Source of the DNA: an uncultured virus (IMG/VR IMGVR_UViG_3300045996_000435)
Lineage: Duplodnaviria > Heunggongvirae > Uroviricota > Caudoviricetes
DNA length: 64,000 nucleotides
Reading direction: 5' to 3' (one strand)
IMG/VR virus record: IMGVR_UViG_3300045996_000435
In this document: one piece after another, positions 2,840-64,000 of the stretch
Position numbering within the stretch: position 1 is the stretch's first letter
Layout of the letters: the number at the start of each line of letters is the position of its first letter
The notes under the pieces: generated by a model
What the model was told of the DNA's origin: nothing
Seen by the model: the letters and a program-made list of their open reading frames with translations, nothing else
The model's database searches: none
Translations under genes and position numbers: made by a program

Positions 2840-2871
2840 TTTGGATTTGGCTTTTAAATGTTGTATCTTTG
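2840..2871 (+). promoter_or_regulatory. Bacteroidota-type promoter
   Basis: TTTG-N20-TATCTTTG. Confidence 0.75.
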
Positions 2872-2889
2872 TAAACATATAAAGTTTGT

Positions 2890-4289: not shown

Positions 4290-4290
4290 A

Positions 4291-4322
4291 TTTGGTCAAA
4301 CTTAAAAAATTTACTATCTTAT
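4291..4322 (+). promoter_or_regulatory. Variant promoter
   Basis: TTTG-N20-TATCTTAT; ATG at 4326. Confidence 0.55.
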
Positions 4323-4325
4323 AAT

Positions 4326-4568
4326 ATGTTAGAATACTTAATGGAAAGAGGCTTCGTAAAGAAAATAGATGGAAGATTAATGATTACTTCCACTTGTCCT
4401 ACATGGGTGTTTGTAGGAACTAAAGACGGAGTCACTCTTCCAGCTTTAGTTGTTAGTACCAGATTAACAGGCAAAGATGCAATGGTGCCAATAAAAATAA
4501 GGACAATAGAGGACTTCGAAACACTAGAACATATTATTGGAGGCGTAAAAAAGACAAACAATGAATAA
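4326..4568 (+). CDS. Hypothetical protein
   Basis: ORF track. Confidence 0.65.
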   Translation: MLEYLMERGFVKKIDGRLMITSTCPTWVFVGTKDGVTLPALVVSTRLTGKDAMVPIKIRTIEDFETLEHIIGGVKKTNNE

Positions 4569-4791
4569 AGTTAAGAAAACTTTACTTACATCTATATATC
4601 CTCATATTTCTGATGAACCTCTTGGGGATGATAAGAACCAGTACGAAATTAACCTTCAGCATACTTTAGATTCTCTGTATCAATCTTTTTATCGGTTGGT
4701 CAGAGATGCCTATGAAGAAGGTGTTTATACTAAAGGAGTAGAATGGGAACAGGATTTTTTAGAGTGGATAGAGAAGCTTGATATAGATTAA
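4561..4791 (+). CDS. Hypothetical protein
   Basis: ORF track, 8-nt overlap. Confidence 0.65.
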   Translation: MNKVKKTLLTSIYPHISDEPLGDDKNQYEINLQHTLDSLYQSFYRLVRDAYEEGVYTKGVEWEQDFLEWIEKLDID

Positions 4792-46712: not shown

Positions 46713-49514
46713 ATGCCTAGTTTCCTTCATAAATCAGAGTTTGTACCTATTCAGCCTTATGCTCATCCAATGGAGTTGCAGGCTAAGGCGTTAATGTATA
46801 GAGACAACAAAGTTAAAGAAGGCTTACAGTCTATTAGAAGTAAGTATGATTCTATACTCTCCTACCAACTAACTAATCCAGAAAACCAAGAATTCGTTAG
46901 AAATGAATTAAAATCTGCTTTGGGTAGACTCGATAGTTTATCTGGAGCAGATCTTTCTCTTCCTGAGAATGTTGGTATGGCTATGTCTACATTTGATCCT
47001 ATTACAAGTGACAGAAAGCTTTTAGAAGATATTTCTTTTACTAGGCATATGGCTGGAGAGAAAGCAAAAATAGAATCTCTTCAAACATCTCATCCTGATT
47101 TAGTTACTCCACAAAACATATTGCCTGTTTTAGAGGCTGAAAATAATTATCGTAATGCAAGGGTAAGAACTGGGCAGTCAGGTAGTCCTGAGTTTGCTAA
47201 GTTTGAACCCTATTATAATTTTGAGAAAACGCATAATGAGTTTCTTACAAAGATTAAAGCTGATATAGATCAACAATTTTCAGATATTCATTATGAAATA
47301 GATATGCCAGATGGTTCTAAAAAAACTGTTGGTATGTTAACTGTACAAGAAAAAGAAGAATTATCAAAATATAAGGTACGCCAGGCTTTGATGTCAGAGT
47401 TTAATTCTGATCCTAAAGCTATGCGTCAGATGATGCTTGATCATCAGTATAATACCAAAATGGAGTTATACAATCCTGAAGAATTAATGACTCGTTTAAA
47501 AGGAGAAACAGATTCTTGGGATGTTAAGATTAAACAAATGCAAAGCCAAGTTGCTCAAGCTAAAGCTATGGGAGTATTAAGTCCAGAGCAGGAAGCACAA
47601 GCAAGTGGGCATATTAAAGAATTAGAAAGCATTAGAGATTCCTATAAAAATAGATATAGTAGTGTAGCAGGAAATCCTTCAGCTTATCAGTTTACCATGG
47701 GAGACCTCGTAGATTCTTATGTTACTAAACAAGAGAATAGATGGTCTTATAGTCAAAAGAAGAAATTGGATTTGGCTCCGGGTCAAACTGAAGTATTTAA
47801 ATTTACTACAGAGAGCTGGCTAAAACAACTTCAGGCTTCTCTTGATATTGCTACTGAAAAGGCTAAAAGTCAAATTAAAATTGAGTTTGATGCTGCTGAT
47901 AGATGGATAAATTCAGATGGTACTCCTGCAGATAGAGTATGGTTGTATGAAGTTAGTGAAGCTGTAGAAACTAGAGGTAGTTATTCTACTGAACAGAATG
48001 ATCCTTCATTACGTGCTCTTGCTGGAGACGTTGATCCTAAAGATGATAAGATTACAATTAATGTTGATAGTGCTGGATTAGAAGGTACTGGAATTATTGT
48101 CAAACCTGCTGTATTAGGAGATAACGTTGAAGCAACAAAAGGTTATACATTCCTTACAGCTTTAAATAAAGGCGTTCAAGATATTGCTAAAATTAATAAT
48201 AAAGAGTTTCAGACTGAAGTTAAACATGTTCAAGGTAAGTCTGATATTCCTTATAGTACTTGGAAGTCGATGTCTTCAAGTGAAAAAGCTAATAAGCTAT
48301 TTAAACTATATAAAGACTATAAAGCTAATCCTAAATCCTTTAAATATACGAGTTCAATGGATTTAATTGTGCCTACTTTAGAGGGCATGGGAATTACAGC
48401 ATCTAGTACAGAAGTTGATTTTACTAAGAAGTATAGTGATGCTTTAACACATACTAATCTTTCTGAAGATCAAGTATCAACAATAGTTGACGCCGGTATT
48501 AAACTTAGTGAAAAAATTCATGGTAAATTTGAGTTTATTCCTGCAACAAAAGATCAAGTAAAAGGATTAGATAATGGTAAATTAGGTGTTGATGGTTGGT
48601 TATTGATGCCAAAGACTGTAGCAGCTAGTAATAAGATACCTGTTGCAGAAATGCAAGCCGCAGGATTATTAAAAAATACATTCAACGAAGAGCAACTTAG
48701 TTATCTTAAAAGTGATAATACTACTGATTATAAAGATTGGGTTGCTATTAAAATAATTAAACCTGTTGATGGAAACAATCAACAAATATTAGAAGCTACG
48801 CAGAAAGCCAGAACTACTTTAACAGGTCAAGATGCAGATAAGTATCTAAAACGATCACAAAAGTTTTGGACAGAATATGAATCTTCTAAAGCAAATTGGG
48901 CAGATTTAGTTCATACTGCTAAATCTAATATAGGTAAGCAATTAGAAGAAGGTAAGATTACTGCAGAAGAAGCAGAAAAGAAACTGAATCAAGTAAGGCA
49001 GTTTGACGAAAATAATAATAAAGGTCTTAGTAGATATCAGAAAGCTTGGAACTTAAAAACGTTACAAGGTCTTACACTGGGAGGTGCTTCAGTAAAGGCT
49101 ATAGAGTTTCTTAAGAGAGATGATATAGAAGGTTTTTATGAAAAAGCTTATCCAGATGGTGGAAGGTATAGTATAGGTTATGGTACTTATGCTACATCTA
49201 GAGATCAAAAGATTACTAAAGAAGAAGCTGAGCAAGCTCTACAACAAGAAGTAACACAAGCAACACAACAAGTAGATGCTGCAGTTAAAGCTCCTTTAGT
49301 GGATGAACAAAAGGCTGCTCTTATATCATTAACATATAATGCAGGTTTTGGAATATCTCAGAGAGTAATTAATTTAATTAACTCTGGAGCTAGTGAAGAT
49401 GAAATTAAAAAGGTTTGGTTAAACCTTGCACTTACAGAAAAAGGGGCTCATCATAAAGGTCCAATTTTAAAATCAAGAAGAGAAAAAGAGGTAGCCCTCT
49501 ATTTCGGTAAATAA
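46713..49514 (+). CDS. Ejection protein with C-terminal GH24-type lysozyme domain
   Basis: EGFYEKAYPDGGRYSIGYG..ITKEEAEQ..ALISLTYNAG..RREKE. Confidence 0.8.
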   Translation: MPSFLHKSEFVPIQPYAHPMELQAKALMYRDNKVKEGLQSIRSKYDSILSYQLTNPENQEFVRNELKSALGRLDSLSGADLSLPENVGMAMSTFDPITSDRKLLEDISFTRHMAGEKAKIESLQTSHPDLVTPQNILPVLEAENNYRNARVRTGQSGSPEFAKFEPYYNFEKTHNEFLTKIKADIDQQFSDIHYEIDMPDGSKKTVGMLTVQEKEELSKYKVRQALMSEFNSDPKAMRQMMLDHQYNTKMELYNPEELMTRLKGETDSWDVKIKQMQSQVAQAKAMGVLSPEQEAQASGHIKELESIRDSYKNRYSSVAGNPSAYQFTMGDLVDSYVTKQENRWSYSQKKKLDLAPGQTEVFKFTTESWLKQLQASLDIATEKAKSQIKIEFDAADRWINSDGTPADRVWLYEVSEAVETRGSYSTEQNDPSLRALAGDVDPKDDKITINVDSAGLEGTGIIVKPAVLGDNVEATKGYTFLTALNKGVQDIAKINNKEFQTEVKHVQGKSDIPYSTWKSMSSSEKANKLFKLYKDYKANPKSFKYTSSMDLIVPTLEGMGITASSTEVDFTKKYSDALTHTNLSEDQVSTIVDAGIKLSEKIHGKFEFIPATKDQVKGLDNGKLGVDGWLLMPKTVAASNKIPVAEMQAAGLLKNTFNEEQLSYLKSDNTTDYKDWVAIKIIKPVDGNNQQILEATQKARTTLTGQDADKYLKRSQKFWTEYESSKANWADLVHTAKSNIGKQLEEGKITAEEAEKKLNQVRQFDENNNKGLSRYQKAWNLKTLQGLTLGGASVKAIEFLKRDDIEGFYEKAYPDGGRYSIGYGTYATSRDQKITKEEAEQALQQEVTQATQQVDAAVKAPLVDEQKAALISLTYNAGFGISQRVINLINSGASEDEIKKVWLNLALTEKGAHHKGPILKSRREKEVALYFGK

Positions 49515-49523
49515 AAAATCATT

Positions 49524-52500
49524 ATGGCAGACGGATTAATGTTCAATCCTGATCAACTTTTAAATAGTCTTCGTCAAAATTTTGGGGCTCCTAGTAATAA
49601 CTATAACCCTGAATTTAATTTTAAACCTTCCACTACTTATGGAGGGTTTAATAGTCCTACGCCTATACTAACTGATAGTAGTTACTATGATTTAGATAGA
49701 ATTGCTTTTCAATCTAACTTTACAAATGGTTGGAATTCATTTATACAAGGTATTAATGAAACACAAGTTTCAGTTACTAAGTATGACTACTTTACAGCTA
49801 AAGCTAATATTGCCGATATAGAAGGATATTCACCATCTACAGGTAAACTTAAAGAACTTGATTACAAACTTAATTCTAGACAAATTTCTCTAGAAGATTA
49901 TAATAAACAAAAAGCTGCATTAGATTCAGAACTTAGTTCATTATATCAATCTCTTCGAAAGTTAGAAGAAGATATGGCAGGAGATCATGCTGATATGGCT
50001 GACAATCCTGTTTCTAAAAGATATGCTCTTAAAGAACAACTGGTTCAATCTCAAGGTAATGATGCTGCACTGTGGGATCAGCTTACCTATGCAATGCCTC
50101 GTGTATCTGGTAGTTCTGCTTCATTAGCAGCTACAGCTCTTACTGCTAATTTAGGTGCAAGGCTTGCTAAACAAGTTGTTGGACGTGCTGCTGCTGGTTT
50201 ATGGGGTGGGCATGTTGGCGCAGCTATTGGAGCTATTTCAGGTCTTATATCTTTCTTAGCTCCTATGGCATATGCTAGGCACTTAGAGTCTAAAGCAGAA
50301 GTAGGTGGTGCAGTAGATAATGCTTATCAGGAACTTAAATTTAAAAAAGAAGAAGAGTTAGGACGGCCTTTAAGTGAAGCTGATCCTAATGATAAAGTCG
50401 TACTTAATGGTTTAGTTAAACAAGCCATGGAAGGTTCTGACAGACAATATTGGAAGAATATGTCTCTAGTAGCTTCTGACTGGATGCAAGCTGCTATACT
50501 TCCTGGTGTATTTGGTAGATTTGGTACTATGTTAAATACTACCAATAAATTAACTAGGCTTGGAGCTAGAGCAGGAACTTTAGCTGCAATGGGTAAATTA
50601 GAAGCTTTAGAAGAAGGTCTTCAGTTTGGATTTGAACATGAAAAGCAACAAGCTTCTCAAGGTTATAAACCAAATAAAAATTTCTTAGAGAGCTTAGGAG
50701 GCGATTATGTAGATGTACTTTCTTCTATGGATTTTGGTCCTATTAGAGGAAATGGTAAATATGGAGATAATAAACAGTTTCAGTTTGCTACTGATGCTGG
50801 ATTCTTGTTAGGTACTTTAATGGCTGGTCCAGGTACTATTTTACAAACAGCAAAAGATGTTTATAATTATAAGAAAACTAATCAAAAGTTAAGAGATGCT
50901 TCTTTGCTAAATACTGAAGAGAATACGCTTAAACTTAAAGATGAAGTTTATCAACAATTCTTTGAGGGAACTCCACAAAGAAGTTCTAATGTGTATCGTA
51001 TGCTTGGTTTTGGAACTGAAGCAGATGATCGTGTACATTATTTAATTGAAGGTATTAAAGGTCTTCGTGGTAAGAAAGACGAAGAAGGTAATCTCATTAT
51101 GTCTGATGATGAGATCAGTAAAGAACTTTCTGATATAAAGAAGGCATATAAGATCTATCATAACATTGGTAAGTCTATAGATAAGATTTTAATTCCTTAC
51201 GGTAAGGAAAATGTTGGTGCTTATAAAGTAGCAGCTCATGCATTTAAGCAAGATTTATTCCATACAACTATGGGATTGATACGTACTAATGAACGTATTA
51301 CTGATGCTTATGCTGCACATGAAGGTCAGGTTGCTTTGACTGAAACTAATCCTGTAATAAGGCCCTTAGCAAGTGCTATGGCTAAATTAGAAGCTGCTGA
51401 AGACTTACTTAAAACAGTTCAAGATACAGCAACAGATGGTAAAGCAAAAGAACAAAGAATAAAAGATTTAAATACCTATATAAAGGAAACTCAAGAAGAA
51501 GTTACTCTTAATCTTGATTTGGCTGGTGTTAAACAATCTGATGTAGCAATGCTTCAGCAATATAAAGATAATGCTGCAGAATTAGTACGTCAAGAAATGT
51601 ATAGAAAAGATTTAGAAAGAAAACAAAAAGATCTTTCTAAAGTTAGTCTATTTAAAGGTAAGTATAAAAATCCATTTACTGGAGCTGAACATAGTGGATT
51701 AATTGATTGGTTTACTGGAAGAAGTATTACTCGTCAAAGTGATGCAGAAGATGCACTTTTTGAGCTTACATTAGAAGGTGCTAAAATGTATGCTGATGGT
51801 CAAAAGAAATCTCGTACTAAGTCTTGGGCTGATTTGTCAGCAGAAGAGAAAGTAAATAGAAGGGCCCAAAATGCAGATATACTTAAGAAAGCTCAATTTA
51901 CAGATGAAGAAGTAACTGCTATGTCCGAGGAAGAAGCTGATGCGAAAGCAGATGATATCCTCGAAGATTTTTCTAGCAAACGTATGCCCTTTAATGAAGG
52001 CGATACTCTTGCTAGATTAGCTACTATGGATGCAGAAGAGTTTGATCGTATGAAAGGTAAGCCTCAATTTAGAAGTAACTTAAGTAAGTTATTTCCTAAT
52101 TGGGAAAATACTACGTTTGATATTCTTAAACAGGCAGCTGAAGATAGACTTAAAAAGAAAGCTGAAGAAACTAAAAAAACTGGTAAGAAGAAGCCTATTA
52201 CAGGAAATATTGATTCTTTTAATGGAATTGTTGGAAGAAAAAAAGATTCTTCTGATACTCGTACTTATAATGAGTTTCTTACTTTATTAAATATAAACAA
52301 TAATGAAAGTACTCAAAAAGAAGTACTAGAATTTATTATAGCTAGTGATTTTGCTAGTCCTCAAGAAAAGCAATTAGCAAAAGAACTTTTGAGTTTGACT
52401 AAAAGTTCAGATAAAATTATCTTTACTGATTTATCTACTCCTGGTCTTTATACTAGATTAGGCTCTGGAGATCTTGTAGATCAAGTTGCAATTGATTTAA

Positions 52501-55500
52501 GATTTCTTAGTGATGATTATGACAATACAGGACTTGCTATAGAAGCAGTTGTTCTTCATGAACTTATTCATAAATATACTATTAATTCTATTAATGACAA
52601 TCCAGATCTTCAACAGAGAGTAACTGAATTGTTTACAACGGCTAAAGAAGCTGCAATTGCGCAAGGACTTACTTTACCTCATTATTATGGATTAACTAAT
52701 GAAGCTGAACTTCTTGCAGAAGGTATGGTTTCACCTCAATTTCAAGAATTTTTAAAGAGAATTAAATTTGATTCTAAGAAAACATATTGGGATAAGTTTC
52801 TTGAATTAGTTAATCAAGCTTTAGCTGCTTTAGGTATTAATACTACTAAAACTGCACTAGATGAATTAATTTCTATTGTAAGTGAAGCTGCAACGTTTAA
52901 AGGATTTGATGCTTTAAAAGATAAGTATCAAAGTCAAGCTAAAGAAATAGTAAAAGCAGCAGCAACTGTTGAGGATGCTATTAATAGTGTTAATCCTATT
53001 CTTGATGAGATAAGTGGACTTAGACAGAATACAAGTATTACTGATGTTCAATATCAGATGCTGTATAATGCTGTTATGGAAGAAGTAGGACTTCGTGGGA
53101 ATCAACTTGCTGCAGAGTTAGCAGCTAATTATACCGTTCTTATAGAAGGCTTTACTCTTACTCCTAATATGTATATTGTTTTACAGAATGGTAAGTATGC
53201 ACGTATTGAATCAGTAGGCAAAGATAAAAAAGGAAATCCAGCAGTTAGATACCAATATAAAGATAATGGTGGTGCAACTGTTAAGATGACTGTAACGGGA
53301 GGACTTAAAGCAGCTTTCAGAACTTACAATGAGATGAAGGCCTATTTAGAAAATGAAGGTCAGGAAGCAGAACCTGATATCATTTTAGAAGAGCCTGTTG
53401 TTATGGGATTAAGTCACCCAGACGATATCAGAGGATATTGGTTTAAATTAGGTCAATCGAAGAACGGTACTTTTTTTGTAGAAAATACAAAAGCAGGTAC
53501 AGATGGTAAAGTGTTTACTTTTCGTGTTCTTGGAGATGCTAAAGAATATATTAGAAGTCAAGTAGCAGGTAGTGAAGTATCAGTTACTGATAGGGATATA
53601 GAAGCTAAGAAAGCTGATATAGAAAGAAGAAGGCAGGAAGAATTAGAGGAAAATGCTTATAGAATAAAAGTTAAGAAAGAAAGTAGAAGAAGTAGGGAAG
53701 ATGATGGAACTATTATAAAAGTAGTTATTACTACTATGCAAGATGGTAGTAAAGTTGCATATACTGAAATTGATGGAAATAGAACTGCTCCAACAACTTA
53801 TTCCAAAGATTTATCTAATGATAAAATATATGAAGCAAGTTCTCCAAATGCAGAAGAGTGGATAGATAAAGAAGCTATAGAAGAAGCTGTACCAAAGTCT
53901 AATGTAACTGAAAAAATCAATGCTAAATATGATGCTGAGTTAGCTTTACTTCCAAATAATACGTCTGTTTCAGAAGAAACAAAAGTTATTCTTGCTACTA
54001 TTGATTCAATAGATAATGAGAGTCCAGAACTTTTAAATAGGCTTAATGAACTTGCCAATGAAGATGATGAATATAAAATGGCAGGTGAGTTGTTTGATCC
54101 TAAAACATTAGAGTCAGTACAAAAAGTTGTACAAGCTGCTTTAAAAGATGGAAAGAATAATTTTGTGGATATAATGAAGTTTGCTGCAAAGCATATCTCT
54201 AAAGATAAGCTTCAGAATGTTTATAATAAAATGAGAGCTGGTTATGCATTTGTTTATGCACAGCTTTCTGAGAAAGGACAATTAATAGAAGATCCTGCTT
54301 TTTTAGTTAACTTAATGAATAACAAGTATACTCTTGACGATATACTTGCTATGGCTGCTGCTCCTGTAACTCAACAAGAGAAAGTAGTTCCTTATGCAGA
54401 TTTACGAGAAGAGAATATAGCTAATAGAGATTTTAGAGCTGGTGTTCTTTATAAAACTGCTGCTCAAGATTTTGAAGTATTGGATATAGATGGTAATAAG
54501 ATTTATAGTAAAGATATTAAGAAAGAACCAGTAGCTGCAAGACGTAGGAACTTTTTGTCTTATCTTTATAAAGAAGTTGAGCGTAGTGGTAAAACACCTA
54601 CAGACTTAGGGTTCTTTGGTCTTATGACTAAAGATAGTCTTGCTTACCCACATGATGCAGAAGATGTAGCTTTTTTAACTACTAAGCCTGAAGCAGCTGG
54701 TGAAATTATTGTTTTAGTTGATAAAGATTTACAGCCTATTAAAATTAACGATAAGGGAGAACCTGATGCGAATGGTGAAGTATTGACTATGTACTTCGAG
54801 AGTCCTGAAAAATTAAGAAAGAGGGCTGATAAAGAAGGGGATCTTAAGTCAGTATGTAAACTTAATAATTTAATTACTTATTCTCCACAAGGAGATGAGG
54901 TATTTGATTTTAATACTGCTAGAGAAATGCTTACTAATGCTGCAGAGAATATTGAGCATTTAAGAGCAGAAGTAAAAGATAATAAACAAGTACTTGTAAC
55001 TTTTAATCAAGTTACGCCAGGCATTCGTCAAACCAGTAAAGAAGGTGTAACAACTACTTTCTTAATAGGTAAGAATGTTAAAGCCCACTTAATGGATACT
55101 CCAATTAAGAAGGGTGGTAATATTGGATACTCAAGTACTGCTAAGAATAAGAAAGGTCGTTTGGGTTATGCTTATGTAGATTATAAAGGAGACTTTATAG
55201 AATTGCAGAGGGATATTTTACCTGATAATATTATAGAACTGATTAGTTATGTTATTAATAATCGTGATACTATTGATGCTACTACAAAAGAAGAGCTTAA
55301 AACATTCTTTAGGAATATCAAGAAAAACTCACAACTAGATATAAATGTTTATACTGGTAGGGTTACTTTAGAGGGCACTGTATTAACTCCAGATCAATTT
55401 GCTGTTGAATTAAAACGTGCAGTGTTGTCTTTTTCTTCAGATGTTATTAATCAGAACTTTAAAGAATTCTATTTAGAAAATGGAGAATTAAAATCAAGGG

Positions 55501-58500
55501 TAACTCCTTATAATGATTTTATGTTCCGTTATTATAAGATGTTTGTGAAACTAGATGAGAATGGTGAACCTTTGTTTGCCAATGCTTATTTAGCATATCA
55601 ACCTTCTAATGTAATGGAGATTATAAAGGGTGAACAGAATGTAGAAGAAATTAAAAAGCAAGAACAAGAAGAAGTTAAAGCAGAAGAAGTTATTACTCCA
55701 TTAGAAGTAAGAGTAGAAGGTGTTAATAAAACTAAAGAAGAAATCTTAAAAGAGATTGCTGAGCGTAAAGCTAAACTTCAGAAGAAAGCTGATAATGTAG
55801 ATGTACGTCTTAGAAAAGATGAAGGTAATATTACTGGATTACCTCGCTCTATTTATCTAGAAAATGATACTGATTTAACAGTTAGTCCAGAAGAGCAAGA
55901 TTGGTTTAAAACTACTCTTGCTGGTGTATATTCTGGTAAGTTTGCTTCTCGTCATATGAAGCTTGTTAAAGAGCTAATTAATTCAGACTCTTGGGGACTT
56001 TTTGCAGAGAGTGGTACGATACTTGTAGAGAACGCTCCTGAAGGTACTTTGTACCATGAAGCTTGGCATGAGTTTACTCAATTATATCTTACTCTTAAAG
56101 AGAAGAAGGCTTTATATAACGAAGCTAGAAAGCAAGGCGAAAGTGATTATCAAGTAGAAGAAAGATTAGCAGAAGAGTTTAGAGCATACGCACTTAAACC
56201 CAGAAAACCTAAATATAGTATATTTGAGAGAATATTAAACTTTATTAAGCAAACATTCTTTGGTAAAGTATCTGTTGATGTTTTGTTTGATAAGTTATAT
56301 AAAGGAGAGATTAATAAATATAATCCTTCTATAAATAATATACAGTTTAAGAGACTTAACGCTGGTATCGCAGATTCAGCAGGAAATGAATTATTCTCTA
56401 ATAAGAGAACACAAACTCTTATTAAGACAATTGATAAGTTAATTTATGATTATATTCATAATGTTCAAGGTTGGTCTTTGTACCGTGTATTCAATGAAGA
56501 GCACGTTTTATTTGCTGCTTATACTTATGCTTACAAGCAGTTTATTGATAAAGACCTTGAGAAGCAGAATCAATTCGAGGAAGCGATTGTAAGAGAAGAA
56601 GATCCAGTAAAACTAGAAAAGATTTATGCTGAAATGGAGTCTCATAGAGATTTGTATGATAGAGTTATTAATAACTTTACTACAATTCTTGAGCACCATA
56701 AGAAGAACTCTAGAACTTTTGTTATTACAGAAGATGAGATTTCTGGTGTATATGATGAAGCTGGAAATATAATCTTTGAAGAAGAGGGTGATGATACTAA
56801 TACTGAGAAAGCTAGTAAGGTATTTGATCAAAAAGCAGGTAATGAAATTTCCTCTATTGATGGAGCTAATAAAGAAACTCGAGCTTTAGTTCGGGGACTT
56901 GCTCGTAGAGTAGATGAAAATAATATTTATATTAATGAATTTGGTTTTCCAGAGCTTGTAGATTTTGCTCAAACTTGGAATAACTTAGCACTTAACCTTG
57001 CCAATACGTATGAGTTTGATAAGATATTAGTTAAGTTGGATAACTTAAAGAATCGTTATCCGGAATATATTGAGTTACTTAAGATCCTTAATGATTATCG
57101 AGTTCATGAAAAAACTGGTCTAGATAAGATATTAATGCTTACAAAGTTTAGACAAGACTTCTCTAGAAGCTTTGTTCCAGTATATGAACTTATCTATGAT
57201 GCTAATACTCTTGAGTATAAAGTAGACGAAACAACTAAGAATAACTTTAAAGCTATTAAGAAATTATTTGATGATAATTTTATTAGTCGTGATGAAAATA
57301 AATATATAAAGAAAGATAAGGATGGTAATAACTATTTAAGTCCTCTTATTTTAGAAGATTTTAATCCTAATGGGTTTTCTAATAAAGGTACAAGAATTAA
57401 ATTCTTGGATGCTTTAGGAATTACGTTTTCAGCTCCTGCCATTAAAGATAGTAGATTTGATGATATCGTAAATAGTTCTAGGCTTACTTTTATTTACAAT
57501 GGTATTAAGCAATTGCTTGATGCTAATGTAAAGATCATGAACCCAACTGAAGATCTTAGTAATAATAGTCGTTATGCTAAATTTGGTTTCTTTGGAGAAA
57601 CTGGAAATCTTAATGCTCTTATTGCAATAGAGTCTAAATATAACTCACTTAACCCTACAGCTTCTATGCAGAATGCTGAAGGTAATACTGTGTATGCACT
57701 TCAATTAAGAAATGCTATTAGTACTATATCTGATTATTTATCAGATTATGTAAACTATCCAACTTATCAAGATTTAATTAGTGAACCTCATTTGGCGTTT
57801 TTAGATTTTACTAAAAATCCTTATGTTAAGAATTCTATCTGGTTAAACAATATGTTTGTACTAGATGAAGAAAGTATACATTTTGGTAAAAGAAAATCTG
57901 TAGATGGTATTTGGAACCCTGAGAAATTAGATCCTGTTGTTATACAGATAGTCAATTTTAATGGTTTGAATGTTGACGCCGAAGGTCTTGATTTAGGTAA
58001 GACAACTACACGTTTGTACGTTGGTGATAAGATGGTTCAGGACTTTACTACATTACTTAAGGCAAGTGGTGGATTTAAAGAAATGATGAGAGCTGGAGAT
58101 AAATCTAGTGCATTTGCTGTTAAATTCTCTTCTTATAGTCAAGCTTTAAATAACCAAAGTAATTTACCAATAGATACTTCTGCATTTAAGAATAATTTGT
58201 TTGGAGGTAAGGATTTCTTAAATATAATGAGTGGATACTTATTTGATGAACTTAAACGTATTCAAGATTATAAGTATAAGAAAGTAGGTACTGATCTTAA
58301 AGCATTTGCTTTAGGTGAAATTAATCTATTTAGAGATTTACTTACTTCTGAAACTAAAACCTCTATTGTAGAGGCTTTAACAGGAGATGCAGATATTAAT
58401 ACAATTATTAACAATCATGCTGCTAAGTTAAGAACTGAACTAGCTGTTTACTTTATTAAACAATTTAATAGTAGAGTTGACAGCTTTAATGATAAGGGTC

Positions 58501-61500
58501 TTAGAGTTCATATAACAGGTACTGATAAGTTTGGAATGTATCAATTAGGAGAAATGCCTAAATGGGTTTCTAAAGATTTGATTACTCCTTATAAAGTAGC
58601 TGGAGAAGTTATTACTCCTACTTTTAGTCAGTTACTTAGATCTTATATTGTTAATGCATTTATACTTAATGTAGAGCAAACAAAGATATTTAATGGAGAT
58701 GGGGCTTTCTATAAAGATTTTCACAAAAGGAATTCTAAAGATAGTGCCACTAAAACAACGATGACAACTGATTCATTCTTTTTGGATTGGTTAAACTATA
58801 GTCCTAATACTAACTTACAGAGTAAACTCCTTGGAGTTTATAATTCTGTTTCTAATGTAATTAATAGTGTTATCTTTAAAGATAATGAAGTACCTTCAGC
58901 TTATATAGATTCTTATAAAAATACAGTAAGGGCTTTGCTTGAAGAAGAATACCTTGATCCTGAAAAAATTGAGGAGACTATTAATCGTATAGAAAGTAAG
59001 TATGGTAAGAATAATGAAGGGGATGCTCAAGGGTGGATTACTCTTGACTTTTACAGAACGTTTAAATTGTCTCAAGGTAAATGGTCTACAAAGCATGAAA
59101 ATGCTTATCGTAAGATTATTATGTCTGAGTTTTATACTAAACAACTAGATACAGCGAGTTCTGAACAAGCTCGTAAAGATATACAATCAAAGATAGGAGA
59201 GAATAAACTTACTGGAGAAGAGATGGCCTATTTTGTGCCAGTTAAAGCTCAATATGCAGGTCCTCTTGTATATAAGGGTCTTTATGCTCCTGCCTTTCAT
59301 AAGTTCTCCCTTGTGCCTCTAATTCCCTCTCTGATAAGGGGTACAGCACTCGAGCATCTAAACGAAAAGATGATTCGTAGTAATGTTGGTTATGGTTTGT
59401 TCGAGTCAGGGTCTAAGGTAGCTAGTATCCAGAAAGAAGTTAATGGTAAAAATGTTCATGAAGATTTCTATTTAGATTATACTTCTAGAACACCTGTAGA
59501 TCGTAATAGTACTTTTGATACAGTAAATCCAGTTTATAGTCACTTCTTAGGGGAGCAAGTTAACATTGAACCAAAAACACACTCTGATGTAATCTTTGGA
59601 ACTCAATTTAGAAAGCTGTTATTTCAGAACCTATATAATCAGGGAGAACCTTTAGATGCTGAAGTTGGAAAACTTTATCATGAATTTTCTGATGTACTTG
59701 CTAAAATGATACAAGTAGAAAAGAAAAGATTGTTTAAAGATTTAGGAATTAAAGAAATTAAACGTGGTAATGAAACTTACTATGAAGCGGCTAACTATGA
59801 AAAACTAGTTGACACTTTAATTCGTGAGGTTAATCGTCGCGATTTAAATGATAACGTAAAGAGATACTTAGAATATGATAAGAGTACTGGCAAGTTCAAA
59901 TATCCTTTAGATGGATCTATGAACAGAAAAGAAATCGAAACTCTTTTAATGTCTCTTATTAATAATAGATTAGTACGTCAAAAAATGAAGGGAGACTTGA
60001 TGATTCAAGTTGCATCTTCAGGATTTGAGTCTACTATTAAGCCTGTTTTAGCTACTGAAGAAGAAAGGCTAGAATATGGTACAAATGGGTTGCGTACTTA
60101 TTATTTAAAAGGTGGTGAAGTAAGAGTATCTGAAGTCAAAGTTCCTTTAACAGAAGACTTTAAGAACTTACTTTATTTTAAACATACGGATGGTAATCAT
60201 ATTGGAACGTTAGAGCGTCTCAATGAAATGATGAGAAATGAGACTTGGAGAAAAGAGCACCGAAAATCCTTAAGGATGGTTGGTTATCGTATTCCTACCC
60301 AAGGTCTTAATTCTATAGAATCTATGGAAGTTAAAGAATTTTTGCCAGAAGAAGCTGGTAATATAATTATACTTCCTACGGAAATTGTAACTAAAGCTGG
60401 TTCCGACTTTGATATTGATAAACTTTCTATATTTAAACCTTCTATTGCAGTTAAGAAAAAATTAACTCTTAATGAGAAAGGTAAATGGATTGAGGAAGTA
60501 GATACTGCTTACTATGTACGTTACAGAAAAGAGTTTAGAGATTACTATGAAATGAAGGATAAAGTAGAAGCTAAGTATGAACCTTTAATACAATCATACA
60601 GAAATAAGTATGATCAGTATATGAAGGATTTAGAGTCTATTTATAGGGAATTTAAAAGAACTGCTGGCGTAGGTAATATAGAGAATTATGTATTAGAAGT
60701 ACAAACTCAAATTGAACTTATTAAAGATCAGCGTGATCTTCTTAAAATAGAGTTAGAATTAACTACTAGTTATGCTGAATGGAAGAAATTAAAATCTTCA
60801 GATAAGAAGTATGCAAATTCTTTAGTAAATCTTAACAGTGAATTATTACTTCTTACAAGTATGATTCATAATCAGAAAGCTTTACTTACTGAAGAGCAGA
60901 TTGCTAATCTTGAGAGTCTAAACTTAAATATGTCCAAATCTTTACAGGCAGATCTTAAATCTTTGCTTAGTAAAGACGGTAAATTATTTAAAGAAAGGCA
61001 AGCAGTTCAGAAGAAGTTTAGAGAATTAATTCTTCAGAAGAAAGAAGCTTTAAGGGAGGCTCTTGATTACAAGAATGGTTTGCAGAATAGGGTAATTGAG
61101 ATTGCTGATAAGATCATGACAGATGATAGAAACTTTATTCAGGTTATTACTCCTAATGATACATTCTTAATTAAACCTCTTATTACAGATAAAGGTGGTA
61201 TTAAAGATAGATTAGGGTTTAATAAAGTTAACTATACTGGTACTAATATCTATACTGAAGCGACTCAAGAAGAGAAGTTTCAGGCAGGTCTTGTAGGTAA
61301 GAAAGCTTTAGGTATTGCAGCTATAACTAATACTTATATGCAGCTTTTCCAAAAAGTTAAACTTCATATTAATAGAAATTATACTAATATATTTAAAGAT
61401 GAGCCTAGTAATCATACTGTCCATCATTATTTATTACCACAAGAATATGCTGGTATAATGAGAGATGCTAGTGGTAGGGTTGTTGGGTATGATCTTAGTC

Positions 61501-64000
61501 AGAAGTATGATGCTGAGGGTGAACTTAAATCAGAGTTTGCATCTCAAATGATTAATGCTTACGTTGACGTATTAAATGATGATTTCATTTTCTATGGTAA
61601 TGCTGGTTTGGATGTAGCTCCTGTATTGTTTTACTTAAAGAATGTTGGAGTTCCTACTAAGACCATTCTACATTTTATTAACCACCCTGTTATAAGAGCT
61701 TATATTGCTCAAACACAAGCGTCGAAGTCTATTGTTCTTGAGACAATTAATCACTTCGAAACTATGCATGATATTGGAGAAACTGAGCAAGGTGTAGTAA
61801 GTAAATTACTTGGTACTAAAGAAAGTGTATGGGCGATTGTAGGTACAGATGATTTATCAGAATACTTTAATGGGGAACTATTAAATCAACGAATAGATAA
61901 CAAGTTAAGCGAAATACCTTTAAGAGAGAAAGCAGCTATACTAGCTCATTATCTTGAACTAAAGCAACAAGCAGAAATGCTTAGAAAGTTACAAGCTTCT
62001 ACTAACTTTGATACTAATACTTTTCAGACTCCAATAGACGCTGATATTCAAGTGGATATGAAAGGAATGGTTAAGGCTACAAAAATGTTTAATAATGAAG
62101 CTCTTGACAGGATAACTGGTGAGACTGTTATTAAAGGGTTTAATGTATCGAAAGTAGTTAATGATATCTTCGAACAGCTTCTTCCTGTTACAGGGTCTAA
62201 GTTCTTTAGGAGTCAAGCTCTTCGCGCATTTAAAGCTATAAGTAAGATTAACTTTGAGATTGATCAGAATAAAGTAGTTAAAACATTTACAAATGATTTT
62301 CTGCTTTACTTACTTACTAAATATTCTACTGTACAGTTAGGAAACCAAGAACAAACTCTTTACAGTTATGTTATGCCTATGTTTGCCTACAATGGACATG
62401 GTGTAGATAATAGATTAGCTTCTAAATTAATTAAGTTTAAAGCTGATCCAGTAAATAGAGACTTAATTAATAAGTATCCTTTAATTCAAAATCTAAAGGC
62501 AGAGTATTTTGGTAACTTAGGAAACATTAAATTAACTCGTCAAGATAATTCCAGTGAAGCTCAAAATTCATTTATTGAGCAGTTTGAGGAATTAATCAGG
62601 CATCCTGACAGTAAAGTAAGAACTTTATTTAAGAATATAGCTTTGTTCTCTATCTTCCAAAGTGGAGTTACTAAGAGTCCTATATCTTTTACAGATATAA
62701 TTCCTAGTCACTTTTATACAACTTATATGTTAAAAGCTATAAGTAAGTATAATAAACTTAATGAAGGAGAAAAACAAGCTTTATTCCAAGAGTTCTTTGG
62801 CAGGTTTTATGTTAACAACTTAGGGCTTTATGGTGAAGTCGCAAGTGTACCTTCTTATAGGTTTAAGAACTATGGTCCAGATGTTATGGTAGTTACTCCT
62901 AAAGGGAATAGTACACAATTCTTTAATGATCAAGATTTTCTTCCACCTGTACAAGGACAATTATTTACAAATGATAATTCTAGTATAATTTATTCTAAGT
63001 TAGGAGATAAGACTGTATCAGGTAATGTTAAATTAGAATCTTGGTCGCAATTAAAAGATGCTAAAAAAGCATTTACAGATATTTATGGTTCTATCGTACA
63101 TATAATCTCTACCCGTATACACGGATCTAATGAGCATTTTGGTAATCCATTTTCTCATGATCCAGCAGGAAAGACTCAAGGACTAATTAAAACTAATACT
63201 ATTAAAGAAGCTGTACAAAATTATATTGACTGGTTAACAACTAATAAATTTGAGAGCGTCCAGCCAGGTAGAAGGCAATGGATTATAAATCAACTTAAAT
63301 CTGAAAACTTAAAAGATAAACCTATTCTTTACTTTAAAGAATTAGGGGAACCTTCTCATGCTACGGCCTTAGATTATTTAATTAATAAGTATGATTGGAA
63401 TAATAATTCTATTACTATTAATAAACAAGAGTTATACACTCAAGATAGATTAGATAAAGCACTAGGAACTCAAAATACTTTTATGTCTAACTTTCATCAA
63501 TTAGAAAATCCTATTATTGATGAATTTGGAAATCAATATTGGAATTCTGAAGGTTACTATATGGCTTTAAGAACTCAAGATCAATCTATTAAAAAAGAAA
63601 TAGCTCAATTTTCTAAACAAGGTGGTCAAGTAGCTAGAAATGCTAGATCTAAATATTCTCTCGATATGCATGAGAATAATAGATTAGAGTATATGAGGAA
63701 AGCTATTAAAGCTAAATTTGATAATAATCCTAGGTTAAGAGCTGAATTGTTAAGTACTGGTAATAAAGAGATAATTGAGAAAAATTATTGGAAAGATGAT
63801 TTGTTTGGTGTCAGAATAGATACAAGGCAAGGCGCTAATATTTTAGGTAAGCTTTTAATGGAGTATAGATCTACTATTCCTGGAGCCCAAAAAGATTTGT
63901 TTAAAGGAGATTCTTTTAAAATAGGTGGACAACAAAATGAAGTTGAAGTTAATTATAAACTTAAAATAGTTAGAGCTTTAAATCATCCAAAAACTAAAAG
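49524..64000 (+). CDS. Giant virion RNA polymerase polyprotein (>4800 aa, runs off window)
   Basis: ATG 49524; same frame for HELIH (52557), HEAWH (56055), GYRIPTQG, AGSDFDIDK (60396-60422) and the window end; no + strand stop-terminated ORF in the track. Confidence 0.9.
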   Translation, partial: MADGLMFNPDQLLNSLRQNFGAPSNNYNPEFNFKPSTTYGGFNSPTPILTDSSYYDLDRIAFQSNFTNGWNSFIQGINETQVSVTKYDYFTAKANIADIEGYSPSTGKLKELDYKLNSRQISLEDYNKQKAALDSELSSLYQSLRKLEEDMAGDHADMADNPVSKRYALKEQLVQSQGNDAALWDQLTYAMPRVSGSSASLAATALTANLGARLAKQVVGRAAAGLWGGHVGAAIGAISGLISFLAPMAYARHLESKAEVGGAVDNAYQELKFKKEEELGRPLSEADPNDKVVLNGLVKQAMEGSDRQYWKNMSLVASDWMQAAILPGVFGRFGTMLNTTNKLTRLGARAGTLAAMGKLEALEEGLQFGFEHEKQQASQGYKPNKNFLESLGGDYVDVLSSMDFGPIRGNGKYGDNKQFQFATDAGFLLGTLMAGPGTILQTAKDVYNYKKTNQKLRDASLLNTEENTLKLKDEVYQQFFEGTPQRSSNVYRMLGFGTEADDRVHYLIEGIKGLRGKKDEEGNLIMSDDEISKELSDIKKAYKIYHNIGKSIDKILIPYGKENVGAYKVAAHAFKQDLFHTTMGLIRTNERITDAYAAHEGQVALTETNPVIRPLASAMAKLEAAEDLLKTVQDTATDGKAKEQRIKDLNTYIKETQEEVTLNLDLAGVKQSDVAMLQQYKDNAAELVRQEMYRKDLERKQKDLSKVSLFKGKYKNPFTGAEHSGLIDWFTGRSITRQSDAEDALFELTLEGAKMYADGQKKSRTKSWADLSAEEKVNRRAQNADILKKAQFTDEEVTAMSEEEADAKADDILEDFSSKRMPFNEGDTLARLATMDAEEFDRMKGKPQFRSNLSKLFPNWENTTFDILKQAAEDRLKKKAEETKKTGKKKPITGNIDSFNGIVGRKKDSSDTRTYNEFLTLLNINNNESTQKEVLEFIIASDFASPQEKQLAKELLSLTKSSDKIIFTDLSTPGLYTRLGSGDLVDQVAIDLRFLSDDYDNTGLAIEAVVLHELIHKYTINSINDNPDLQQRVTELFTTAKEAAIAQGLTLPHYYGLTNEAELLAEGMVSPQFQEFLKRIKFDSKKTYWDKFLELVNQALAALGINTTKTALDELISIVSEAATFKGFDALKDKYQSQAKEIVKAAATVEDAINSVNPILDEISGLRQNTSITDVQYQMLYNAVMEEVGLRGNQLAAELAANYTVLIEGFTLTPNMYIVLQNGKYARIESVGKDKKGNPAVRYQYKDNGGATVKMTVTGGLKAAFRTYNEMKAYLENEGQEAEPDIILEEPVVMGLSHPDDIRGYWFKLGQSKNGTFFVENTKAGTDGKVFTFRVLGDAKEYIRSQVAGSEVSVTDRDIEAKKADIERRRQEELEENAYRIKVKKESRRSREDDGTIIKVVITTMQDGSKVAYTEIDGNRTAPTTYSKDLSNDKIYEASSPNAEEWIDKEAIEEAVPKSNVTEKINAKYDAELALLPNNTSVSEETKVILATIDSIDNESPELLNRLNELANEDDEYKMAGELFDPKTLESVQKVVQAALKDGKNNFVDIMKFAAKHISKDKLQNVYNKMRAGYAFVYAQLSEKGQLIEDPAFLVNLMNNKYTLDDILAMAAAPVTQQEKVVPYADLREENIANRDFRAGVLYKTAAQDFEVLDIDGNKIYSKDIKKEPVAARRRNFLSYLYKEVERSGKTPTDLGFFGLMTKDSLAYPHDAEDVAFLTTKPEAAGEIIVLVDKDLQPIKINDKGEPDANGEVLTMYFESPEKLRKRADKEGDLKSVCKLNNLITYSPQGDEVFDFNTAREMLTNAAENIEHLRAEVKDNKQVLVTFNQVTPGIRQTSKEGVTTTFLIGKNVKAHLMDTPIKKGGNIGYSSTAKNKKGRLGYAYVDYKGDFIELQRDILPDNIIELISYVINNRDTIDATTKEELKTFFRNIKKNSQLDINVYTGRVTLEGTVLTPDQFAVELKRAVLSFSSDVINQNFKEFYLENGELKSRVTPYNDFMFRYYKMFVKLDENGEPLFANAYLAYQPSNVMEIIKGEQNVEEIKKQEQEEVKAEEVITPLEVRVEGVNKTKEEILKEIAERKAKLQKKADNVDVRLRKDEGNITGLPRSIYLENDTDLTVSPEEQDWFKTTLAGVYSGKFASRHMKLVKELINSDSWGLFAESGTILVENAPEGTLYHEAWHEFTQLYLTLKEKKALYNEARKQGESDYQVEERLAEEFRAYALKPRKPKYSIFERILNFIKQTFFGKVSVDVLFDKLYKGEINKYNPSINNIQFKRLNAGIADSAGNELFSNKRTQTLIKTIDKLIYDYIHNVQGWSLYRVFNEEHVLFAAYTYAYKQFIDKDLEKQNQFEEAIVREEDPVKLEKIYAEMESHRDLYDRVINNFTTILEHHKKNSRTFVITEDEISGVYDEAGNIIFEEEGDDTNTEKASKVFDQKAGNEISSIDGANKETRALVRGLARRVDENNIYINEFGFPELVDFAQTWNNLALNLANTYEFDKILVKLDNLKNRYPEYIELLKILNDYRVHEKTGLDKILMLTKFRQDFSRSFVPVYELIYDANTLEYKVDETTKNNFKAIKKLFDDNFISRDENKYIKKDKDGNNYLSPLILEDFNPNGFSNKGTRIKFLDALGITFSAPAIKDSRFDDIVNSSRLTFIYNGIKQLLDANVKIMNPTEDLSNNSRYAKFGFFGETGNLNALIAIESKYNSLNPTASMQNAEGNTVYALQLRNAISTISDYLSDYVNYPTYQDLISEPHLAFLDFTKNPYVKNSIWLNNMFVLDEESIHFGKRKSVDGIWNPEKLDPVVIQIVNFNGLNVDAEGLDLGKTTTRLYVGDKMVQDFTTLLKASGGFKEMMRAGDKSSAFAVKFSSYSQALNNQSNLPIDTSAFKNNLFGGKDFLNIMSGYLFDELKRIQDYKYKKVGTDLKAFALGEINLFRDLLTSETKTSIVEALTGDADINTIINNHAAKLRTELAVYFIKQFNSRVDSFNDKGLRVHITGTDKFGMYQLGEMPKWVSKDLITPYKVAGEVITPTFSQLLRSYIVNAFILNVEQTKIFNGDGAFYKDFHKRNSKDSATKTTMTTDSFFLDWLNYSPNTNLQSKLLGVYNSVSNVINSVIFKDNEVPSAYIDSYKNTVRALLEEEYLDPEKIEETINRIESKYGKNNEGDAQGWITLDFYRTFKLSQGKWSTKHENAYRKIIMSEFYTKQLDTASSEQARKDIQSKIGENKLTGEEMAYFVPVKAQYAGPLVYKGLYAPAFHKFSLVPLIPSLIRGTALEHLNEKMIRSNVGYGLFESGSKVASIQKEVNGKNVHEDFYLDYTSRTPVDRNSTFDTVNPVYSHFLGEQVNIEPKTHSDVIFGTQFRKLLFQNLYNQGEPLDAEVGKLYHEFSDVLAKMIQVEKKRLFKDLGIKEIKRGNETYYEAANYEKLVDTLIREVNRRDLNDNVKRYLEYDKSTGKFKYPLDGSMNRKEIETLLMSLINNRLVRQKMKGDLMIQVASSGFESTIKPVLATEEERLEYGTNGLRTYYLKGGEVRVSEVKVPLTEDFKNLLYFKHTDGNHIGTLERLNEMMRNETWRKEHRKSLRMVGYRIPTQGLNSIESMEVKEFLPEEAGNIIILPTEIVTKAGSDFDIDKLSIFKPSIAVKKKLTLNEKGKWIEEVDTAYYVRYRKEFRDYYEMKDKVEAKYEPLIQSYRNKYDQYMKDLESIYREFKRTAGVGNIENYVLEVQTQIELIKDQRDLLKIELELTTSYAEWKKLKSSDKKYANSLVNLNSELLLLTSMIHNQKALLTEEQIANLESLNLNMSKSLQADLKSLLSKDGKLFKERQAVQKKFRELILQKKEALREALDYKNGLQNRVIEIADKIMTDDRNFIQVITPNDTFLIKPLITDKGGIKDRLGFNKVNYTGTNIYTEATQEEKFQAGLVGKKALGIAAITNTYMQLFQKVKLHINRNYTNIFKDEPSNHTVHHYLLPQEYAGIMRDASGRVVGYDLSQKYDAEGELKSEFASQMINAYVDVLNDDFIFYGNAGLDVAPVLFYLKNVGVPTKTILHFINHPVIRAYIAQTQASKSIVLETINHFETMHDIGETEQGVVSKLLGTKESVWAIVGTDDLSEYFNGELLNQRIDNKLSEIPLREKAAILAHYLELKQQAEMLRKLQASTNFDTNTFQTPIDADIQVDMKGMVKATKMFNNEALDRITGETVIKGFNVSKVVNDIFEQLLPVTGSKFFRSQALRAFKAISKINFEIDQNKVVKTFTNDFLLYLLTKYSTVQLGNQEQTLYSYVMPMFAYNGHGVDNRLASKLIKFKADPVNRDLINKYPLIQNLKAEYFGNLGNIKLTRQDNSSEAQNSFIEQFEELIRHPDSKVRTLFKNIALFSIFQSGVTKSPISFTDIIPSHFYTTYMLKAISKYNKLNEGEKQALFQEFFGRFYVNNLGLYGEVASVPSYRFKNYGPDVMVVTPKGNSTQFFNDQDFLPPVQGQLFTNDNSSIIYSKLGDKTVSGNVKLESWSQLKDAKKAFTDIYGSIVHIISTRIHGSNEHFGNPFSHDPAGKTQGLIKTNTIKEAVQNYIDWLTTNKFESVQPGRRQWIINQLKSENLKDKPILYFKELGEPSHATALDYLINKYDWNNNSITINKQELYTQDRLDKALGTQNTFMSNFHQLENPIIDEFGNQYWNSEGYYMALRTQDQSIKKEIAQFSKQGGQVARNARSKYSLDMHENNRLEYMRKAIKAKFDNNPRLRAELLSTGNKEIIEKNYWKDDLFGVRIDTRQGANILGKLLMEYRSTIPGAQKDLFKGDSFKIGGQQNEVEVNYKLKIVRALNHPKTK

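Follow-up and report, generated by a model that had tools for sequence, protein, structure and literature searches.

A NADAR domain in frame with a crAss-type virion RNA polymerase: a candidate virion-delivered ADP-ribose hydrolase

The 64,000-nucleotide stretch of DNA analysed here as a whole (hereafter the window; IMG/VR record IMGVR_UViG_3300045996_000435, an uncultured virus of the Caudoviricetes) contains a block of structural and cargo genes from a crAss-like phage, the last of which encodes a giant polyprotein. The C-terminal part of this polyprotein contains a NADAR domain, which follows in frame a region that homology and gene order support as a crAss-type virion RNA polymerase (RNAP). 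Considering the fold, the active-site residues, the carrier and the recurrence of such fusions in Crassvirales, the favoured reading, at a probability of about 0.5, is that this NADAR domain is a virion-delivered hydrolase stripping ADP-ribose from nucleic-acid bases.

The NADAR domain is genuine, and its identification lies far beyond chance. Pfam NADAR (PF08719) matched the giant open reading frame (ORF) with 63.7 bits, well over its gathering cutoff (35.1), at E 3.1e-17 and across positions 9-162 of the 163 in the profile, which agrees with the initial annotation of this DNA, where the family had been proposed from sequence motifs; these motifs stand in frame in the translation of 49524-63998 (+) (...TFMSNFHQLENPIIDEFGNQYWNSEGYYMALRTQ...KAKFDNNPRLRAELLSTGNKEIIEKNYWKDDLFGVRIDTRQGANILGKLLMEYR...), and the interval given there, 63480-63870, falls within the domain as delimited here (Table 1). 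The segment also matched phrog_1017 (E 1.7e-25). A sequence search of the whole giant protein against the PDB retrieved solely Escherichia coli YbiA (2b3w, 4.4e-7) and the NADAR protein of Phytophthora nicotianae (8bau, 1.1e-4), and a profile of the 18-member subfamily found the same two structures with E values of 7.5e-14 and 1.7e-10, respectively. The AlphaFold model of residues 4640-4825 (mean predicted local distance difference test (pLDDT) 84.3) displayed the YbiA-like fold, in which small beta hairpins lie on the sides of a helical core. Only 8bau (E 2.2e-6, template modelling (TM) scores 0.61/0.60) and 2b3w (E 4.8e-6, TM 0.61/0.67) were recovered from the PDB by Foldseek at E<=0.001.

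The carrier of this domain was characterised by frame, motif, homology and gene order, all of which agree with the earlier claim of a fusion to the virion RNAP. No stop codon interrupts the giant-ORF frame from 49524 to the end of the window, where it is still open at 63998 after 4825 codons. The catalytic motif DFDID occupies residues 3628-3632 (60405-60419), and DFDxD was present in 15/15 relatives checked, in line with the definition of gp66-type RNAPs by DFDxD with Ile or Val at the fourth position (bioRxiv 10.1101/2020.03.07.982082). Using residues 3100-3800 as the query, tblastn matched 113 phage records, nearly all crAss-like, among them cr108_1 (E 2e-42), the 'putative RNA polymerase' of crAss001 (2e-21) and Cellulophaga phage phi14:2 (2e-21). 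The phi14:2 gene matched is gp66, a 2180-residue 'structural protein' detected by tandem mass spectrometry according to its record note, which aligned to the core with E 6e-28 in a local search. The gp66 protein has a DFDID motif, transcribes single-stranded DNA (ssDNA) far better than double-stranded DNA and makes the early transcripts (bioRxiv 10.1101/2020.03.07.982082), and the RNAP-associated proteins of crAss001 are capsid cargo (PMC10172136). Since the gp66 structure was not found when the whole giant protein was searched against the PDB by sequence, the RNAP link rests on tblastn; the muzzle ORF likewise had no match there. In gene order, the giant ORF is preceded by CrAss_Ring_2, CrAss_Ring_1, crAss_MUZ, an 847-residue ORF and a 933-residue ORF (Pfam), and the block of cargo and RNA polymerase genes of crAss001 occupies the same genome place (PMC10172136). 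The terminase, portal and major head protein families of the window, whose GC content is 33.5%, are all crAss-type.

A search with residues 3250-3700 of the RNAP core retrieved 1067 giant proteins. The nine nearest relatives (P0262-P0270) aligned from residue ~20 onwards and stopped at residue 4450 in seven cases, 4454 in one and 4459 in one, so that the conserved protein is made up of the N-terminal module and the RNAP core while everything beyond is lineage-specific. Two HExxH motifs lie in the conserved part, VLHELIHKYT at residue 1012 (52557-52571) and LYHEAWHEFTQ at residue 2178 (56055-56069); VLHEL[IV]H was kept in 9/15 relatives checked and the second motif also in 9/15. Both are candidate zincin-like peptidase sites that may process the polyprotein. 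By analogy with phi14:2, the N-terminal module is probably the zincin-like partner encoded there by a separate gene, gp65. The orthologue of gp65 bears a zincin-like protease domain, and gp65, gp66 and gp67 are fused in some phages into a polyprotein that is 'likely cleaved' (bioRxiv 10.1101/2020.03.07.982082).

These features suggest a mechanism in which the polyprotein would be made late, packed in the capsid and expelled ahead of or with the DNA, as expected by analogy with gp66 of phi14:2 and gp47, gp49 and gp50 of crAss001. The NADAR domain would then cut the N-glycosidic bond by which ADP-ribose is attached to guanine, or possibly to cytosine, the likely substrates being single-stranded phage DNA or early RNA, and base-ADP-ribosylating defences would thereby be neutralised prior to any phage gene expression. 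The neighbouring DUF4326-like domain, described below as domain X, would probably take part in the same ADP-ribose chemistry. DarT-type toxins modify ssDNA, which is also the template form preferred by gp66-type RNAPs. Besides this preference, the cargo-polymerase carrier, the nucleic-acid enzymes found on related giant proteins and the repeated fusion to the RNAP argue for a delivered base hydrolase. The chemistry has precedents: every one of the four NADAR subtypes assayed, YbiA included, removed ADP-ribose from guanine but not from thymine in vitro (Cihlova et al. 2024, PMC11125620), guanosine ADP-ribosylation of RNA (PMC11833690) and cytidine ADP-ribosylation (PMC12945103) are also reversed by NADARs, and the phage NADARs named AdfN counter DarTG1 (PMC11825919).

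Delivery itself admits a different reading, in which there is no injection and the cassette, released from the polyprotein by the zincin-like module or left unpackaged, acts mid or late in the producing cell, for instance by cleaning replicating or to-be-packaged DNA. The two conserved HExxH motifs, the expectation of the phi14:2 authors that fused polyproteins are cleaved (bioRxiv 10.1101/2020.03.07.982082), the poorly conserved joint between core and cassette (residues 4450-4474) and the location of the gene within the structural block are all compatible with it. Nevertheless, this reading is considered quite unlikely, given that proteins usually reach the capsid by being fused to cargo, and that processing of polyvalent and MuF-fused effectors is predicted to follow their delivery (PMC5512222, PMC9503650). 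Moreover, a free early gene would suffice for an intracellular role, and the repeated independent fusion to the RNAP therefore argues for co-delivery.

The active site was assigned by alignment to 8bau together with the residue roles reported by Schuller et al. 2023 (PMC11543638). The mapping pairs E43 with E4676, K50 with R4683, R79 with R4708, W89 with H4716, R93 with R4720, E125 with E4752, D130 with D4758 and W133 with F4761, leaving E4676, R4683 (at the Lys position), R4708, R4720, E4752 and D4758 as the putative active-site residues. E4676 thus corresponds to the catalytic Glu (E43; E88 in E. coli C7), and E4752 to the other acidic residue (E125; D171). Across 18 aligned subfamily members, R4683, R4720, E4752, D4758 and F4761 were invariant and E4676 was conserved in at least 90%. 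This pattern looks like that of an enzyme under purifying selection, with the exchange of Arg for Lys as a trait of the subfamily.

The residue at the E125 position is Glu in the YbiA family, Asp in the DarT1-linked BC4488 group and His in T4-like phages (PMC11543638). By this position the NADAR of the window is of the Glu (YbiA-like) type, neither DarG1-type nor T4 AdfN-type, and Pfam Phage_30_3 (PF08010) had no match to the giant ORF at E<=0.1. The initial annotation had named the DarG1 antitoxin among NADAR domains; a DarG1-like character is contradicted here by the Glu in place of Asp, by the lack of a match between the subfamily profile and 8bat (G. lovleyi), and by the Arg in place of the catalytic Lys. 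Furthermore, a Pfam scan of the giant ORF and of 40 further ORFs of the window detected neither DarT nor any other ADP-ribosyltransferase (ART), and no Macro or other NAD-related domain; self-immunity against an ART of the phage itself is therefore unsupported within the window.

The nearness to YbiA raises the question of whether the domain could be a YbiA-like housekeeping N-glycosidase acting on reactive riboflavin intermediates, or else an inactive or structural remnant. E. coli YbiA is the closest structure by profile, the Glu that marks its family is present (Schuller et al. 2023, PMC11543638), the catalytic Lys is exchanged for Arg, and several of the best cultured-phage matches are labelled 'GTP cyclohydrolase II'. 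These labels, however, probably stem from known RibA-COG3236 fusions, a riboflavin-damage enzyme has no evident reason to be on a virion polymerase, and the invariance of active-site residues across the subfamily is contrary to decay, which makes either version very improbable.

A separate observation concerns stand-alone NADAR homologues (P0215, P0230, P0246, P0248, P0252, P0254 and P0258), which showed Trp at positions where the subfamily has a conserved Gly (SEWYYMA versus SEGYYMA, LFW versus LFG, and LWKL versus LGKL). The pattern suggests that TGA was translated as Trp where it actually encodes Gly, as happens in lineages with genetic code 25 or in the phages of such lineages.

Past residue 4450, the giant ORF continues as a lineage-specific cassette consisting of domain X, NADAR and then sequence that meets the window end; the stretch joining it to the core is the poorly conserved one noted above. 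Its distribution was surveyed with precomputed Pfam labels on the best 120 proteins of each list. On the best 120 of the 1067 RNAP-core relatives, the labels were DUF7831 (40), histidine phosphatase (9), cpYpsA SLOG (4), AlkB (2), helicase domains (2) and ART-PolyVal (1). A second search with the C-terminal region (residues 4440-4825), limited to giant proteins, gave 315 matches, and counts from its best 120 are biased toward domain X: PF08719 was labelled in 14, of which 11 carried the RNAP core by its own hidden Markov model (HMM), with AlkB in 8 and a RecD/Pif1-type helicase in 29; RNase H and a uracil-DNA glycosylase (UDG) fusion also occurred on giants. AlkB, helicases, RNase H and UDG act on nucleic acids, which counts for the delivered base hydrolase. 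DUF7831 (PF25176), the commonest labelled accessory domain on crAss RNAP giants, was observed directly after NADAR in P0034 and P0082.

Only P0004 among the best 120 of the 315 shares a close NADAR. Its NADAR is 64% identical to that of the window and its RNAP core only 27-30% identical, indicating that the NADAR module moves between distant phages. In 7/9 Pfam-confirmed NADAR giants examined (P0006, P0034, P0050, P0082, P0083, P0158 and P0164), domain X lies directly N-terminal of NADAR with a gap of at most 46 residues; in the other two, P0178 and P0004, X is absent and a SLOG or a weak Nuc_deoxyrib_tr-like domain stands in its place. A broad iterated NADAR HMM drifted, and its counts (26/120 and 6/119) were discarded in favour of the Pfam labels; of the extra giants it had drawn in, 8/8 checked (P0002, P0021, P0031, P0056, P0072, P0076, P0081 and P0093) were without Pfam NADAR at E<=0.01.

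Reference Crassvirales carry such fusions as well. The RNAP gene of cr126_1 (2402 residues) contains NADAR at residues 62-189 (51.6 bits) and is labelled 'DUF1768 domain-containing protein' in RefSeq, while the corresponding genes of cr272_1 and cr130_1, 19161 and 17406 nucleotides long, carry NADAR on the C-terminal side of the core (40.4 and 37.4 bits, with TAG read as Gln); cr131_1 was also matched in the NADAR search of reference phages. The NADARs of cr126_1, cr272_1 and cr130_1 keep the canonical Lys, are not matched by the subfamily HMM and have no detected domain X alongside. Since these are differing NADAR lineages, the fusions to the RNAP in reference Crassvirales appear to be independent acquisitions. 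The NADAR segments of cr272_1 (L007, 7001-7528) and cr130_1 (L008, 7001-7456) contain in-frame TAG, and the one in cr130_1 falls at the conserved Gln of xExxFQAxK, consistent with TAG as Gln. The NADAR of cr126_1 matched 94 records, which do not include 'frurule', a cultured Kolpuevirus of the same genus. Fusions thus recur in reference Crassvirales even though none is labelled among the best 120 core relatives. Compositionally, the cassette shows a weak sign of recent transfer, with a GC fraction of 0.292 against an ORF mean of 0.321 (standard deviation 0.017) and a third-position GC of 0.146 against 0.180 (standard deviation 0.030).

A broader and unlikely reading treats the C-terminus of the crAss RNAP as a swap site for 'first-responder' cassettes, with the NADAR and DUF4326-like pair acting while tethered and de-ADP-ribosylating the ssDNA template or the nascent early RNA, coupled to transcription and ahead of all phage gene expression. 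The occupants of the site would then include NADAR, DUF4326-like, DUF7831, SLOG, histidine phosphatase, AlkB, helicases and ART.

Domain X, a domain of ~150 residues and the partner of NADAR in the cassette, was found in 119 of the best 120 of the 315 giants, at 42-77% identity and at variable positions, sometimes split by insertions; this identity holds across phages with RNAP cores only ~25-30% identical. The invariant positions N, P, V, Y, P, S, H, A and A lie inside HFGNPFS and KELGEPSHATALDYLIN, and the model of the domain has a pLDDT of 90.7. No Pfam family scored above threshold. Pfam DUF4326 (PF14216) gave 12.5 bits on the X of the window and did not reach its cutoff of 25, and sub-threshold DUF4326 hits occurred in 8/23 domain X members (best E 0.006). 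In the fold search of BFVD, DUF4326-named entries made up 14 of the top 50, the best having E 1.5e-2, probability 0.99 and TM 0.42/0.47, with none at E<=0.001, and the two best Atlas clusters for X, both viral, carry DUF4326 with feature scores of 0.91 and 0.89. As these three weak lines agree, X is described as 'DUF4326-like' and is not called a member of the family. Foldseek found 0 PDB matches at E<=0.001, and in a wide search with VIA-align the highest Z was 2.8; 7 chains had Z>=2 and no chain Z>=5. The cysteines that a rhodanese-type phosphatase would be expected to have are missing from domain X. X and NADAR were folded separately, because aligning them jointly had misaligned the X-only sequences (11-19% identity).

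Domain X also extends beyond this setting. It was matched at 4 loci in genome_contigs, none with a crAss RNAP core; giant ORFs of Moraxella nonliquefaciens and of a metagenome-assembled genome of Neisseriaceae, both without that core, contain it, and it was located in L005 (residues 1977-2148) and L006. In many giants, X comes in two halves ~25-230 residues apart (P0002, P0012, P0016, P0021, P0026, P0028, P0033, P0035, P0040, P0041 and others), and the spacers could be inserted domains or inteins, P0051 having intein and homing-endonuclease Pfam labels. As an unknown, domain X may be the more widespread.

The pairing of X with NADAR brings in the main rival explanation, that the cassette acts on soluble ADP-ribose derivatives and blunts NAD+/ADP-ribose-based defences. 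The substrates could be NAD+-derived immune signals, compounds arising when NAD+ is depleted, or ADP-ribose phosphates left by RNA repair, and the cassette would be either delivered or made late. Iyer et al. 2022 argued that phage NADARs mostly target soluble ADP-ribose derivatives, and DUF4326 was proposed in the same work to remove terminal phosphates from ADP-ribose breakdown products (PMC9503650). The direct X-NADAR order in seven of the nine giants fits this proposal, as do the replacement of X by SLOG or a Nuc_deoxyrib_tr-like domain in P0178 and P0004 and the histidine phosphatase on 9 of the best 120 core relatives. On the other hand, X lacks the rhodanese-type cysteines and its DUF4326 link is sub-threshold, all NADARs tested so far act on base-linked ADP-ribose (PMC11125620, PMC11833690), no natural soluble substrate of a phage NADAR was found in the literature examined, and a tether to an ssDNA-reading polymerase better fits a nucleic-acid substrate. 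A soluble substrate is accordingly judged possible, if on the unlikely side.

Removal of ADP-ribose from bases by a delivered NADAR remains the favoured function, and several observations weigh against it. The catalytic Lys found 7 residues past the Glu (K50 in P. nicotianae, K95 in E. coli C7) is R4683 here, a conservative change; the nearest types are YbiA and the P. nicotianae protein, the DarG1-type 8bat being unmatched by the subfamily profile at E<=0.01; and in uninfected cells neither YbiA nor the NADAR of T4 relieved the toxicity of DarT1 (PMC11125620). The NADAR label was present in 0 of the best 120 of the 1067 core relatives, and the subfamily HMM found NADAR in 0/119 and X in 6/119 of them, making NADAR dispensable for the polymerase. 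The X partner, the SLOG (4) and histidine phosphatase (9) domains among the best 120 core relatives and the weak Nuc_deoxyrib_tr-like match all point to small-molecule nucleotide or ADP-ribose chemistry, as does the preference for soluble substrates argued by Iyer et al. Finally, the cleavage expected for fused polyproteins and the two conserved HExxH motifs could part the domain from its carrier.

The features of the giant ORF and its upstream neighbour are collected in Table 1. The product of the 933-residue lysozyme ORF is probably an ejected cargo protein that cuts peptidoglycan. The residues past NADAR, which include model residues 155-183 with pLDDT <50 and have no relative among the stored proteins, may be either a linker to further downstream sequence or a disordered end. 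On the opposite strand under NADAR, no ORF of at least 40 residues was present after base 63179. Near-identical DNA was absent from the phage collection, an exact 61-mer from the viral and metagenome contigs, relatives of the C-terminal piece of the giant ORF from the viral contigs, and relatives of the RNAP-core query from genome_contigs. Elsewhere in the window, a 348-residue ORF at 2890-3936 matches PF18909, the N-terminal domain of dATP/dGTP diphosphohydrolases, with 102 bits, and a further part of it weakly resembles NT5C-like nucleotidases. Enzymes of this type are associated with phages that modify their nucleotide pools; none of the scanned ORFs of the window looked PurZ-like.

Table 1. 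Features of the giant ORF and the gene directly before it, in window coordinates
Feature	Position	Strand	Basis or remark
933-residue ORF with a phage lysozyme domain at its end, directly upstream of the giant gene	46713-49514		Pfam, 66.8 bits
Giant ORF (>4825 residues, open at the window end)	49524..63998	+	Fused crAss-like cargo/RNAP polyprotein
N-terminal module (residues 1 to ~2100; HExxH at residue 1012)	49524..55820	+	Alignments of relatives, motif
Predicted crAss-type virion RNAP core (residues ~2100-4450; HExxH at residue 2178)	55821..62873	+	tblastn, DFDID
Domain X, DUF4326-like (residues ~4474-4632)	62943..63419	+	Motifs HFGNPFS and KELGEPSHATALDYLIN; model; weak DUF4326 matches
NADAR domain (residues 4650-4785)	63471..63878	+	Pfam, phrog, PDB sequence and fold matches
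40-45 residues past NADAR	63879..63998	+	Low-confidence model

What would be new here is the delivery form, an RNAP fusion, of a known counter-defence, the concepts being already in print. Polyvalent injected proteins are known (PMC5512222), and virion-packaged NADAR, Macro and Nudix proteins as well as DUF4326 fusions were described in 2022 (PMC9503650). Phage NADARs were shown to defeat DarTG1 only in 2025, as free proteins made after infection (PMC11825919). The description of this arrangement as a little-described system consequently stands for the fusion of NADAR to a crAss virion RNAP, which was not found discussed in full-text searches covering main texts, and does not extend to virion packaging of phage NADARs, predicted in 2022, nor to the NADAR of cr126_1, which bears a RefSeq label. 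Full-text search found no literature pairing crAss-like phages with DUF1768, and for crAss-like phages and NADAR it found a listed free gene and no fusion. The available text of the 2017 polyvalent-protein paper contains no NADAR, DUF4326 or crAss (PMC5512222), and that of Yutin 2021, taken apart from the domain drawings of its Figure 3, contains neither 'fused' nor 'ADP-ribos'.

A defence that marks incoming DNA acts before phage expression, and an eraser carried on the polymerase that reads the first genes would, if the favoured reading is true, close this gap. In the human gut, crAss-like phages outnumber all other phages, and to our knowledge hardly any work has been done on their counter-defences. 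That NADAR has been fused to the RNAP repeatedly and independently offers a concrete hypothesis, as does the wider and very conserved DUF4326-like domain, and a search for new anti-defence enzymes would do well to turn to the variable tail of the RNAP polyprotein.

Among characterised systems, AdfN (T4 gp30.3) and the stand-alone phage NADARs (PMC11825919) resemble the NADAR of the window in being phage-encoded without a partner toxin and without the N-terminal extension of DarG1, and removal of ADP-ribose from phage nucleic acid would be expected of both. AdfN, in contrast, is a small free protein made after infection, whereas the NADAR described here is part of a polyprotein with a virion RNAP, and in the T4 type the diagnostic residue is His and Phage_30_3 is matched, where the NADAR of the window has Glu, has Arg for Lys and lacks that match. 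YbiA (2b3w) and the P. nicotianae protein (8bau) are the best matches in both sequence and fold, sharing the Glu at the E125 position and the equivalents of E43, R79, R93 and D130; they differ by K50, W89 and W133, replaced in the window by Arg, His and Phe, and they are stand-alone cellular proteins rather than phage cargo. DarG1, the BC4488-type antitoxin of DarTG1 (PMC11543638), belongs to the same superfamily and its chemistry is expected to be alike, but the NADAR of the window has no adjacent DarT, has Glu instead of Asp, and has no identified basic N-terminal extension.

On the side of the carrier, gp66 of phi14:2 and gp47, gp49 and gp50 of crAss001 are comparable in their homologous core, identical DFDID and position past the muzzle and cargo genes. 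The gp66 protein has 2180 residues and no Pfam domain, whereas the putative RNAP of the window adds an N-terminal module of ~2100 residues and a C-terminal enzyme cassette. The closest architectures are those of cr126_1 (Kolpuevirus hominis), cr272_1 (Buhlduvirus porcinus) and cr130_1 (Chuhaivirus simiae), in which NADAR is likewise in frame with a crAss RNAP gene, cr126_1 differing in that its NADAR is N-terminal and that of the window C-terminal. In a wider frame, the protein appears to share with polyvalent and head-packaged effectors such as T4 Alt and MuF fusions (PMC5512222, PMC9503650) a giant multidomain build, a place in the virion block, motifs of the zincin-like kind and exchangeable enzyme domains for which activity upon arrival is predicted, here in the form of the RNAP core, X, NADAR and two conserved HExxH motifs within the cargo block. 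It differs from them in its scaffold, which is predicted to be the virion RNA polymerase itself.

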